From Chrysomallon squamiferum (taxonomy: Eukaryota; Animalia; Mollusca): 64,000 bases of DNA. The notes under the pieces are model-generated. The model did not search any database and had not been told where the DNA came from. It was given only the letters and a program-made list of their open reading frames with translations. Made by a program: the position numbers and the translations under genes. The stretch is from positions 10,416,001-10,480,000 of the forward strand of contig CM022666.1 in NCBI GenBank assembly GCA_012295275.1, read 5' to 3'. Below, in pieces: positions 26,503 through 34,495 of this stretch (position 1 is its first letter; every line of letters begins with the position of its first letter).

Positions 26503-29500
26503 ATGGCCAAGTCGACGACGAAGCAAGGTAACTGCGGTACCCTGCGTGACAAGCTTCAAGAGGAATTCCTCTCCTGTAAGATTTGTCTCGAACCGATTCG
26601 CCGCCCTAAAGCTCTGCCATGTCTGCATAGCTTCTGTGAACACTGTCTCAAAGACTATGTACGCAGACACCCTGGCAATAAAGCAGGCTATTTTCCCTGT
26701 CCAATGTGTCGTAAGGACACACTCATCCCACAAGGTGGGGTGGAAGATTTCCAGGACAATTTCTTGCTTCTCAGTTTATCTGACACACTGGATGAAGAAA
26801 ACTGGGAACCCCCAGGTGTTGCCCGCCTAAATCACCAGATGTCACCACCAAGACACTTGTGCCCTCCTTCACCAAGAGAATCACATCTAAGAAGTTACGA
26901 GTAAGTTGTCAGTGTTAAGCTTCTGACTATTTAAAAAGAATTATTCCTTATTTTAGTTAAGGTTAAAAAAAGAAAACACTTTTAATAATCTTCTTACACT
27001 GGCATTCAGAGACAACGATAGGAAACAAATTCACAATAAAAAGAATTAAAGAAAAGATAAAAACAGTAATGATTCGAGAGCAAACATAAATAAATATTAA
27101 CATACAGCCAAATACTTTCACTAACATTTAAAATAATGTGAGATAGCTGTGGTGAGTTTTTTTGAGTAAGTAAACATTAACAATTGTTTATAAATAACTT
27201 TTAACAAGATGGAAGAATATATAAAAACTAGTTTTGTTAATACAACAGCCACAAGCTAAATAAGAAAATACAGTGGAATCTCGGATTACAAACATCTCGA
27301 AGCATGAACAAATTGGATTAGCCACTGAAAATTCTGAATACTGAACTATCTGGTCCTGATGAGTTTATTTAAAAAAAAAAAAATTATTTTGGTAAATTTC
27401 AAAATTATATCAATACAATTTTATAACAATTTTATTTAATACTTTTTTTTTTTTTTAAATATTTCTCAAAACACACACCAGTCTAAACCAAATAATTGTT
27501 TCAGTCCCTAATGCATTAATAAATAAATAGTAATTAATATAGTTTAAGAAAAATGTGTGTGTGTGTGTGTGTGTGTGACATCAAAAAAAAGCAACATCAA
27601 TAAATATACATTCGAAGTATTTGTTAGTTTATTCATATTTGTTCTGGTGAACTTTGGAAATTACAAAATGGAGTTCCATACTGATAAGTTTATCTTAAGA
27701 ATTTTGGGTTATTAATGAAAGAATATGATTTAAATTTGATTAAAGGCACATGACCTAAAATGTATGCGTGTTCAAAAAAAATGTTCCAGTTAAATACAGG
27801 CTCATAATATATTTAAGTGCTGTAGGTTGAGGTGGACATTTTGCTTGTGCACGTGTACAAATATCAATATTATGGCAGTACAAGTAATATACAAAAACAT
27901 AAAAAGATTGCAGATTAGATATTTGCTATCAGTTTTAAAAACACTAGCAGACTTGTGGAAACCTAATTTATTTAACTTTTCTTTCTGGGTTTTTTCAGCT
28001 ATTTAATTTATTATTTTATTTATTTTATATATTTTTTAGATATGATATGATTTGGACAGATTAGAAACACATGTTTTTTTCATCAGATGGTAGATCTGGT
28101 TGGAGAGCGATAATTCTATCTTTAGATCTCTTTTACTGTCAGCCCCAGAGTTATAAAAATCTGGTATAGCTTGAACCTCCTGCTGGGTTCCAGGCAAAAT
28201 AAAACTTTAAAAACAAGTTATTTTTTACAAGATATGGCAGACAAATTGACATGATGAAGATACCTGTCAAAGATTGTGTATAACCTTAATACTTATTACT
28301 TCTCTCTACCATATCTTCTGTTCTGAGATACATACATACATATAAATATATATATATATATATGGAGCATCTCCACTTCCAGGGCTGGTTTTGGCACCAT
28401 TGAAAACTAATAAAATTAGCTTTCTAATGATATGTGGCAAGACATGAATAAAATAAAAATAAACATATTTCTCTTGAAAAATCACCTCCAAATTATGAAA
28501 TGTGGCAATGAATTCATACCAAACATTTCTGATCCCATTCAAAAGCTTGTTCAATTTCCTTTTGAATGGTATTTTAAACTGAGCATAACATTTACTGGCT
28601 TTTTTTCAACATAATGTCTGGTACCAATGCCAATTGATGATTTTTGTGTTCAAATGCACATTGGTGAATTTGATCTTGTTTTTTTGATTGAATTCAGTAC
28701 CATTTTGGTAAGCTAGTTATTCCAATCATTAATTAAGGTTTCATATAAATATATTTAAGAATTCATTTAATTTTTTACATATTTTATCCTGAAAAAGAAG
28801 TAGAACAGAACCTAGCAAATCTACTGATCCATTTAAAAAGAAATTCATTTGCTTTTTACTGCTGAAACAGATTGTAACATCAACACTTTATTTTATTTTG
28901 TTTAGGAATAAAAAATATGCTTTATTTGTAAAATAACTGAACTTTAGCAATCTCACCACAGGGTAGATTGCAAAAGTTAATTCAGTTGATACTTGGAAAT
29001 CAACCTATAGTTCCTTCTTCTTGCTTCACTTTCAGTGTTAATTACTATAATATTTTGTTTTAATTCAAATAATCCAAGTTAAAAAATGAAAGTCAGGAAA
29101 TTAAATATAGTAGTAGCTAAATATAGATATGTCCAGAATGCAAGTCTGAAGGTAACATAAAAGTACATGATCAAAATACAACTAACAAATCACAAGTACA
29201 TACATGTGATTCACTGTTTCTTTAATGCGAAATTGTTATGTGTTAGTTCAACAAATGTATGCATGTAGTGTAGTATAGCGTTGCTTGCTATTTTGTCAGT
29301 GTCAAGTACAAACTCAGCTCTTCTCTGCACTGAATATATCTGAAATTGAAGTTAATGACAGAAAACTGTCTTTATTCATTCAAAATTTGAATGAAATCCA
29401 TATGATAGTTTTTAGGTTATGTTGAGAACTGTATCATCAAGCAGAATACAATGATTATTGTCCAAAAACTGCTATCTAGATGGAGCACTAACAGGCTTTT

Positions 29501-32500: not shown

Positions 32501-34495
32501 TGGTTTGTGTCACCACATCAGTTATACACCATTCATTGTCTTCTTGCATGTATTATAATGACAGTGTTGTAGTTTTATGATGTAATAGGTTCTTGTCATG
32601 CAACATAAGCCTCATACTATCTCTGTCAATTGTCACATAACTGTCTATACATTTCAGATAATTCTGATAGTTTTCATTTTTATTAATACTTCTAAACTCA
32701 TTGCCCAACACAAATTTTGCAAACAACTTCAGGTAAAAAAAACCAGTTATATATAAACAAAACAACAACATTAAAAAAACAACAACACTAACTCAAAATT
32801 AAAAGTAAAATTATAAATAATAATTCTGTTTTTCAGTGTGATACTTACTATATCAGATACTGAACATTTTCTAACAACTTTCACAGTTGAATTTGTTCCT
32901 CTGAACATTTAACAAAGAAAAAAAAAAAAAAAAACTATTAGCAGTAATAGCCTTGGACATTGAGGCATGACATGTGCCTCCCTTTACCTGTTCCACAGTT
33001 GCTGGTGACATGTATGGTACCTTTTCTTATATTTTTTTTAATGTGGAAACAGATTCATTCAGTTCCATTACAATATAAATTAAAAGGTCGACAATTGTTC
33101 TTCAGTTTTTTAATTATTATTTTTGGATGTTTGACAGATTGCTGATGCAATGGCTTATATGGAAAAAGAAAAATTTGTTCACAGAAATCTTGGTGCTCGG
33201 AACATACTGGTTGGAGAACACAACAAAATTCGTATCTCAGGATTTGGCATGACTAAGGCAATGGATGACCCCGACTTCAATTTTCGCAGAGGTAAGAAAA
33301 ACTCTGATACAGATGAAACTGTGTTTTGATTTTTATCACTTCTCAGTGGAGAGAAATGAAAAGTACATGCTAAGACTGTTAAATTATCAATTAAGTTGTT
33401 ATTTTTGTTTTTATCAGTTCTAATTAGTTGAATTTTTTTATTTGCCTTTTTGTTGACATGCATATATTCTAGCTTTGTGTAAGTTGTGCATGTATTTTAT
33501 TATAATATATCTGTACAATATTGCTTAAGAATACTGAAAATAAATAATTGAAGATAACTAGTTTCACTATTAGTTTATATCAACTATAAAAATTAAATGA
33601 TTTTCTAAGTACATTATTTTAATATAACAGTATGTACTTGCCAATTATATATTTGCTATTATAAATTTGCTATTATATGTATGAATTTTGTTGATGTTTT
33701 TATAACAAAGTCAGTGAGGTGTGTTGTTTTATATCAGGACTGAAAATGGCAATAAAGTGGATGGCTCCCGAGGTTCTTCTCTACAACAAATACAGCACAA
33801 GGGCAGATGTCTGGTCATTTGGCATTGTTCTAATCGAAATATTTACTTATGGCAAGGAACCATATGAAGGTTATTTTCATTTTTGTTGATATTAAGAAAA
33901 CTTAATCTGTAGTCCTGAGACAAGGATAATATAAATCTTATTATCTTATTTTAATTACTTATTTTATTTTATTTTTCTATTAATGTCAAAAATGTTCAAA
34001 ACTAAAATTACCAAGCATTATAAAATCAAGTTCGAAATTAATCCAAATTATAACTGTTATATACTAATACACTTATTATTACTACTACTAGCAGACTTGT
34101 ATCAAATGTATGGACAGATGCATTCCTGTCTTTGAGAATTTGTATGTAAAAGATCCATTTCTGCTACCAGCACATTTCTTCTAGAATCTGATACAGGAAA
34201 CATGACTGATATCTAATTACTGTTTGATTCCACTGAACTCTTTAACCATAAATTCATTTAATGTGGAATTTTTTTGTTTTGTATTGTCTTTGAAGATAGA
34301 TGTTTATTAAAATATATTTCAGGTATGCCAAGTAAAGAAGCATTTGAAAGTGTACAGCAAGGATACCGGATACCACGGCCTGAAATGTGTCCTGTTGAAG
34401 TATATGATGTCATTTTGACAGCATGGAACACAAATGCTCACTCTCGGCCTTCTTTTGACTTTTTCAACACATTTTTACATGACTTAGTGAGCTGA
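26503..34495 (+). CDS. RING finger-SH2-Src-family tyrosine pseudokinase fusion protein (~516 aa)
   Basis: Coding exons 26503-26900, 30165-30268, 30537-30701, 31359-31523, 31678-31937, 33138-33291, 33738-33869, 34323-34495 total 1551 nt, all GT-AG and in phase. [38 protein letters not shown]2: [50 protein letters not shown]. Kinase fold: [53 protein letters not shown]. The N-terminus may be extended by an upstream phase-1 exon. Confidence 0.9.
27271..27330 (+). mobile_element. Short TcMar/Tigger-like terminal fragment
   Basis: TA-CAGTGGAATCTCGGATTACAAAC resembles the CAGTGG..CTCG..TTAC TIR of the other elements. No matching right end was found. Confidence 0.35.
30960..31370. repeat. Degenerate tandem repeat in the intron before the SH2/kinase-linker exon
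   Basis: Recurring GGTTTATATTGATAGAT-like core near 31022, 31087, 31118, 31180, 31243 and 31344. The last copy supplies the real splice acceptor (ACAG|AT at 31358/31359). Confidence 0.7.

Follow-up and report, generated by a model that had tools for sequence, protein, structure and literature searches.

In animals, tyrosine phosphorylation is known to be coupled to ubiquitination mainly by Cbl, by SOCS-box proteins, and by pairs of adaptors and ligases. Cbl begins with a TKB region (four-helix bundle, EF-hand, and variant SH2), after which come a linker helix and the RING. In the SLAP/SLAP2 pairing with Cbl and the Tribbles/STK40 pairing with COP1, Src-derived SH2 adaptors or pseudokinases bring substrates to a RING ligase, adaptor and ligase being separate proteins. 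Artificial SH2–U-box and SH2–RING chimeras have also been engineered, in which the SH2 directs the ubiquitin-ligase domain to a tyrosine-phosphorylated target (PMC4916441). Here we describe a gene in a 64,000-nt stretch of the gastropod Chrysomallon squamiferum (GenBank GCA_012295275.1, contig CM022666.1, positions 10,416,001 to 10,480,000 of the forward strand; the whole of this 64-kb stretch is referred to as the window) that joins a RING, an SH2, and a Src-type kinase-like domain in a single polypeptide. On the sequence evidence we read it, with moderate confidence, as the gastropod copy of a mollusc-wide fusion of a TRIM2-type RING with a Src64B-type SH2–pseudokinase, likely to act as a RING E3 ubiquitin ligase whose targets are tyrosine-phosphorylated proteins.

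The fusion differs from each of these systems. Unlike the SLAP–Cbl and Tribbles/STK40–COP1 pairs, it has the adaptor and the putative ligase in one chain, and in contrast to the engineered chimeras it is natural, phylum-wide, and additionally equipped with a pseudokinase. Its likeness to Cbl is a functional analogy only: an SH2-type module that reads phosphotyrosine is combined with a RING in the same protein, the ligase role here being a predicted one. The domain order is reversed, with the RING first and then a canonical Src-type SH2 rather than a TKB before a linker helix and RING; the RING context is not homologous; and Cbl has no pseudokinase. No Cbl entry was found among the best 60 of 61 PDB matches of the RING exon. 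Activation of the Cbl RING by a linker phosphotyrosine, as mentioned in PMC9732051, has no evident equivalent in the fusion protein.

The gene lies on the + strand at 26503 to 34495. Rebuilt from the sequence, it has eight exons that join in frame to 1551 nt, i.e., 516 codons plus TGA, which reproduces the 516-codon spliced frame put forward in the first-pass annotation. All seven introns are of the GT...AG type, the donor at 33870 being weak (GTTATT). The encoded protein consists, in order, of a TRIM2-like C3HC4 RING, a proline-rich linker, an SH2, and a Src-type kinase domain. Pfam was scanned exon by exon, and each single exon matched the expected family except that at 31359–31523, which gave no match when scanned alone. 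The features are as follows (E values from Pfam unless stated; a slash marks a splice border).

26490–26491 (+), acceptor AG before the RING exon; the frame is open across it (..SEWLTMAKS)
26503–26900 (+), exon 1 as modeled: ATG, RING and flanking helices (residues 1–97), most of the proline-rich linker, donor GA/GTAAGT; zf-C3HC4 4.8e-10, PDB TRIM2 RING 1.6e-20, 78% identity to Haliotis over the exon
26575–26709 (+), RING core C25–C69, C-x2-C-x11-C-x-H-x2-C-x2-C-x17-C-x2-C, from the sequence and conservation counts
26710–26712 (+), linchpin Arg70, directly after the RING core; role from PMC9732051
26901–30164 (+), intron 1, 3264 nt; tblastn with 12 Src-family kinases and 25 TRIM-like proteins detected no coding potential for an SH3, B-box, or NHL
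30165–30268 (+), exon 2, first half of the SH2 (WYFGKVSR...); SH2 2e-8
30247–30249 (+), FLVR arginine R161, in exon 2
30537–30701 (+), exon 3, second half of the SH2 (..LVKHYKI..); SH2 1.4e-7
31359–31523 (+), exon 4, SH2–kinase linker and glycine loop (LGSGQFAEV), from tblastn to Src-family kinases
31678–31937 (+), exon 5, kinase N-lobe and hinge, with the alpha-C Glu (FLDEA) kept; PK_Tyr_Ser-Thr 8.1e-20
31710–31712 (+), VAVK lysine K289, retained, in exon 5
33138–33291 (+), exon 6, catalytic loop and activation loop, which carry the inactivating changes; PK_Tyr_Ser-Thr 6.4e-15
33186–33188 (+), N381 (HRD to HRN), in exon 6
33240–33242 (+), G399 (DFG to GFG), in exon 6
33276–33278 (+), F411 at the activation-loop Tyr position, in exon 6
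33738–33869 (+), exon 7, P+1 loop, APE, and helix F, followed by the weak donor; PK_Tyr_Ser-Thr 1.4e-17
34323–34495 (+), exon 8, end of the kinase C-lobe, ..FLHDLVS, TGA at 34493–34495; PK_Tyr_Ser-Thr 6.7e-9

The critical point of the model is the junction between the RING exon, whose 3′ end reads GA/GTAAGT (26900), and the first SH2 exon, whose 5′ end reads ag/T TGG TAT TTT GGG (30165). Both borders are identical in sequence to those first proposed and are phase-compatible. If left unspliced, the RING-exon frame stops at TAA 26902–26904, giving a stand-alone open reading frame (ORF) of 133 residues. The RING exon might hence belong to another gene or be such a stand-alone ORF, with the SH2–kinase gene starting elsewhere, and gene callers in other assemblies have at times produced RING-only models that read through the donor (P0006 and P0013). 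Against this, the junction recreates the WYFGKVSR joint that is conserved in relatives (..[R/K]x[Y/H/F][D/E/K]-WYFGKVSR.. in the family alignment), the spliced model aligns end to end with a Haliotis rubra protein (P0001; collinear over residues 1–516, 82% identity), the fused ORF occurs on short intron-less contigs in relatives, and there is no other TRIM or SH3 exon within the 64 kb. We therefore consider an annotation artifact extremely improbable. A further 23 full-length relatives share 63 to 77% identity with the model, and the end-to-end ortholog alignment together with the recurrence of the same architecture in relatives argues that the junction is not a chance frame.

This architecture was recovered with the RING exon alone as the query against longer proteins in the protein database. 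Among the 40 matches, 29 had a RING as well as an SH2 according to Pfam, and PK_Tyr was present in 27 of these; none contained an SH3 or, among the 29, the B-box PF00643. The remaining matches were the two RING-only models, which extend through the donor into the intron, and nine TRIM-like proteins. Wherever a source was named, the fusion proteins came from molluscs: a chiton (Liolophura) and numerous gastropods and bivalves, with Octopus sinensis contributed by a second search and Batillaria by a look-up of clusters. The combination of RING, SH2, and tyrosine kinase domains thus recurs in chiton, gastropods, bivalves, and Octopus. Taken on sequence grounds, the RING–SH2–kinase fusion is a genuine gene that has been conserved in molluscs, its junction in C. 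squamiferum resting on orthology. As far as seen it is restricted to Mollusca, a scope defined by word-seeded database searches, which do not prove that annelids, brachiopods, or other phyla lack it.

Several relatives have uninterrupted fused ORFs of 507 to 566 aa on contigs of 1.8 to 4.0 kb, and one 519-aa fused form was present on 307 contigs, each of ≤4668 nt. Since such contigs are too short to accommodate introns (the gene spans 8 kb here), they are probably transcripts, and the fused message is then probably expressed in these relatives.

In a midpoint-rooted tree of the SH2–kinase region, built with no outgroup, the family was monophyletic, with the chiton basal, then the octopus, and then bivalves plus gastropods; the C. 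squamiferum sequence adjoined Haliotis. This topology fits one gene passed down from an early mollusc. Because the tree lacks an outgroup, we claim only that the kinase part is Src-family derived, not that it falls inside or outside the Src64B clade. Mean pairwise identity over 22 relatives plus the model was 0.76 for the RING, 0.71 for the SH2, 0.72 for the kinase domain, and 0.47 for the RING–SH2 linker; judged by these sequence comparisons, the three domains are under similar constraint. The linker (window positions 26800–26900; relatives P0001 to P0029) is the least conserved part, yet a proline-rich core, ..SPPR.L.PP[S/T]P.E.., is kept, which resembles proline-directed phosphorylation or SH3/WW-ligand motifs.

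The start of the gene was originally placed at 26503. This is indeed the first ATG of the RING exon; it may, however, not be the sole N-terminus. The acceptor AG at 26490–26491, the frame that stays open across it, and the presence in longer ortholog isoforms of ...EWL[T/N]MA immediately before the shared start Met indicate that this acceptor probably receives first exons from upstream, either non-coding ones or alternative coding ones. Ortholog N-termini either read MA[K/R].. or carry unrelated extensions. A search of the window for an upstream coding exon, using a bivalve motif (..FTSIPGNMNNF..) and the Haliotis extension, matched only the RING exon itself (26470–26568), all other high-scoring segment pairs (HSPs) having E values of ≥0.29. 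Conserved alternative bivalve extensions of the form ..M[R/K].F..F[T/S]S[I/V]PGNM..F.. were seen in six proteins (P0003, P0011, P0015, P0018, P0021, and P0023) and a second type, ..MRF[S/T]N[Y/F]RNRGK.VDKCGR.., in two isoforms (P0016 and P0030); these extensions before the RING contain no known domain, and neither type was found in the window.

The two halves of the protein have different nearest relatives. Against PDB sequences, the SH2–kinase part scored highest with Fgr, Src, and Hck (357 to 332 bits), with Abl (307) and Btk (258) scoring lower, and by fold the nearest structures were likewise Src, Fgr, and Hck. When the Haliotis SH2–kinase region was searched against the protein database, family members scored 537 to 912 bits and the next proteins were Src64B/Fyn types with ≤400 bits and 37 to 47% identity. 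The catalytic loop, HRNLGARN, is two residues off the protostome HRDLAARN type. For the RING with both flanking helices, the closest solved structures were TRIM2 (1.6e-20), TRIM56 (1.1e-17), and TRIM3 (2.9e-17), and the nearest RINGs in the database outside the fusion family were those of mollusc “TRIM2-like” RING-NHL proteins, with 44 to 52% identity in one search and 41 to 55% in a second. Given that the kinases closest to the family carry an SH3 (Src64B/Fyn types) and that its closest RINGs belong to mollusc TRIM2-like RING-NHL proteins, it is plausible that the RING replaced the SH4/unique/SH3 region of a Src-type kinase.

The window was searched by tblastn (E ≤ 10) with 12 SH3-bearing Src-family proteins, and no SH3 exon was detected in its 64 kb: matches were confined to the seven SH2/kinase exons. 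Outside them the best HSP had an E value of 0.089, and no HSP aligned significantly with an SH3 segment. The earlier statements that intron 1 contains no SH3 exon and that there is no Met-Gly myristoylation start, the frame opening with MAKS, are both borne out. Nor was any B-box, coiled-coil, or NHL exon found in the window, where 25 TRIM-like queries matched the RING exon only (next HSPs, E values of 0.56 and 0.68).

By definition, then, the protein is outside the Src-family kinases, the TRIMs, and Cbl. With Src-family kinases of the Src64B/Fyn type it shares a homologous SH2, SH2–kinase linker (DGLCxxL..C), and kinase fold at 41 to 46% identity, the SH2 preceding a Src-type kinase fold by Pfam as well as by best sequence and fold matches; it differs from them in having an N-terminal RING and in lacking an SH4 with Met-Gly, an SH3 before the SH2, the activation-loop and C-terminal inhibitory tyrosines, and the HRD and DFG aspartates. 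With TRIM2, TRIM3, and TRIM56 (class VII TRIM-NHL proteins) it shares a RING whose core and both flanking helices align and in which the linchpin Arg and the equivalent of TRIM2 F81 are present. The B-box and coiled coil that follow the RING in a TRIM are missing, as are the filamin and NHL parts, and an SH2 plus pseudokinase stands at the substrate-binding end.

The kinase-like domain was called dead in the first-pass annotation, and the residue counts, based on 30 family sequences and 85 Src-family kinases, agree. The HRD position was HRN in 30/30 family members versus HRD in 85/85 Src-family kinases, and the DFG Asp was replaced by Gly in 29/29 covered family sequences (G[F/C/L/Y]G) versus DFG in 85/85. 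Both catalytic aspartates are thus lost and the losses fixed across the family, which makes the domain a pseudokinase in the usual sense (absence of the VAIK Lys, the HRD Asp, the DFG Asp, or more than one of these; here two of the three). The activation-loop Tyr, present in all six of the commonest Src-family forms listed, is Phe in 29/29 covered family sequences, and the C terminus (FLHDLVS) is devoid of a Src-type tail or regulatory Tyr. The beta3 Lys, alpha-C Glu, and APE are kept throughout, as in Src-family kinases, together with the glycine loop and the catalytic-loop Asn, and the alignment shows almost no variation in the activation segment throughout the phylum. From these substitutions the domain is almost certainly unable to transfer phosphate; nucleotide binding may survive, given the retained beta3 Lys and alpha-C Glu.

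The retained residues (beta3 Lys, alpha-C Glu, catalytic-loop Asn, glycine loop, and APE) could alternatively be taken to mean that the protein is an atypical but active kinase that transfers phosphate by a non-canonical mechanism, with the RING serving to regulate or target the kinase. A GFG variant occurs in CASK, and residual activity has been claimed for a few kinases without the DFG Asp. Such activity nevertheless appears very unlikely here, where the catalytic base and the metal-binding Asp are gone in every covering family sequence and the activation-loop and C-terminal regulatory tyrosines have been lost as well.

The SH2 and the RING, on the other hand, retain their functional residues. 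In the SH2, the FLVR Arg was present in 29/29 covered family sequences, the alpha-A Arg in at least 29/30, and the strand D H-Y-K/Q in 30/30. All eight RING zinc ligands are kept, and CPMCR[K/Q] or CPICRK was found in 27 of the 28 covered family sequences, one further model beginning inside the motif. According to PMC9732051, TRIM2 RING activity depends on R64 (the linchpin), on F81, and on dimerization via a four-helix bundle involving V12, I16, F20, F82, L86, and V89. In the PDB alignment these correspond to R70, F87, and L14, L18, F22, L88, L92, and T95, respectively, so that the activity residues are kept or conservatively replaced except for V89, and five of the six dimer-interface positions remain hydrophobic. 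The zinc ligands, the E2-contact residues, and the linchpin Arg/Lys expected of a RING E3 are accordingly all present.

Based on these features, a RING E3 ligase directed at phosphotyrosine would most likely operate as follows. The RING would recruit a UBE2D-type E2 charged with ubiquitin and would probably be active as a dimer formed, like that of TRIM2, by the helices on either side of the core. The SH2, with its phosphotyrosine pocket intact, would dock on phosphotyrosine sites of the kind read by Src-family SH2 domains, and the kinase-like domain would provide a second binding surface or a conformational switch. The predicted net effect is that phosphorylated Src-pathway proteins become ubiquitinated, which would give a Cbl-like role in negative feedback or sorting, achieved with different parts.

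Several observations weigh against a ligase of this kind, and some of them favor a non-catalytic adaptor or decoy that competes with or scaffolds active Src-family kinases, its RING serving for dimerization, interaction, or self-turnover rather than for substrate ubiquitination. Conservation of the SH2 and of the kinase-like surface matches that of the RING, and the conserved pseudokinase could be purely an adaptor. One dimer-interface position is polar (T95 in place of V89). Neither the database matches nor the 64-kb window revealed a B-box or coiled coil that could pair two RINGs as in TRIMs and so activate them. RINGs devoid of ligase activity do exist, such as those of class VI TRIMs (PMC6487577). 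In the AlphaFold monomer of the Haliotis ortholog, the flanking helices had a predicted local distance difference test score (pLDDT) of only about 33 to 39; the single domains were confident, but with an overall pLDDT of 70.9 and a predicted template modeling score of 0.49 the domain arrangement is unreliable, and a slightly better fit of the model to open c-Src (1y57) is not interpretable. An ESM Atlas look-up returned generic RING and Src clusters only. What speaks against a mere adaptor or decoy is that the RING is the most conserved of the domains (0.76) and that none of its eight zinc ligands has been lost, nor the linchpin Arg or the F81-equivalent Phe, residues that matter specifically for activation of the ubiquitin-charged E2. 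We regard the adaptor or decoy role as rather unlikely and retain the RING ligase aimed at phosphotyrosine proteins as our preferred reading.

A bolder form of the ligase reading, which we find possible but doubtful, is that the protein is an “anti-Src,” a Src paralogue turned from writer to eraser roughly half a billion years ago. Its SH2 would read the phosphotyrosine made by Src, the dead kinase cleft would hold the client, and the TRIM2-type RING would ubiquitinate it, being switched on only when two copies meet on clustered phosphotyrosine sites. If true, this would mean that the Cbl principle was invented twice, independently, and that engineered SH2–ligase degraders have an equivalent in nature.

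Databases give little hint of any of this. The fusion proteins bear automatic names such as “SRK2-like,” “Fyn-like,” or “LCK-like” kinase, and shortened models exist both with the RING only (P0006 and P0013) and without it (a Solemya model, P0044); the first-pass annotation had foreseen that the gene would be called a Src-like kinase or split in two. That annotation also knew of no earlier description of the architecture, and our search agrees with it: in the full-text literature, with subscription journals and supplements outside its scope, no published account of a RING–SH2–pseudokinase protein was found. The main text of the oyster kinome paper mentions a Src expansion and neither SH2 nor pseudokinase, although its supplements may list the gene (PMC4883820). 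A snail “SRK2-like” report (PMC8414863) gives no sequence and may concern the fusion gene or another one.

A phylum-wide protein combining a TRIM-type RING with a Src-derived SH2–pseudokinase would represent an independent solution to the coupling of phosphotyrosine and ubiquitin, reached via exon shuffling, and provides a clean example of the conversion of a kinase into a non-catalytic module for targeting. A caution also follows for mollusc genomes and expression studies: behind the label “SRK2-like” or “Fyn-like tyrosine kinase” stands a protein almost certainly unable to phosphorylate.

Elsewhere in the window, exon-like ORFs at 391–3880 (+) encode the C-terminal nucleotide-binding domain of an ABC transporter, with Walker A GQSGSGK, signature LSTGEKQ, and Walker B ILILDE. 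Their per-exon Pfam ABC_tran matches (E values of 1.1e-3 and 8.6e-5) were below the curated cut-off, and they probably represent the upstream neighbor gene, on the same strand as the fusion gene. Downstream and on the opposite strand, 60574–61059 (−) gave a weak Major Facilitator Superfamily match (E value of 8.3e-4, below cut-off) and is a possible transporter exon. Three ORFs of about 125 to 150 residues, at 2413–2787 (+), 5447–5830 (−), and 39306–39758 (−), have no Pfam match. The first two share ..SAEKKK.MMSIELK.. and the last two a similar ..LLLVGATNN.TS.QHP.SYSFTS.GYL..EAS.., and together the three related ORFs look like an interspersed repeat or transposon remnant. A faint DUF4371 match at 63375–63671 (+; E value of 8.7e-3) is probably a transposase-derived fragment, presumably of the hAT type. 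The longest open frame of the window, at 55358–56131 (+), spans 258 residues, is Ser/Thr-rich, and has no Pfam match. Long CA/GT and CT/GA dinucleotide runs at 62257–62562 and 27455–27715 read as THTHTH or SLSLSL open frames.

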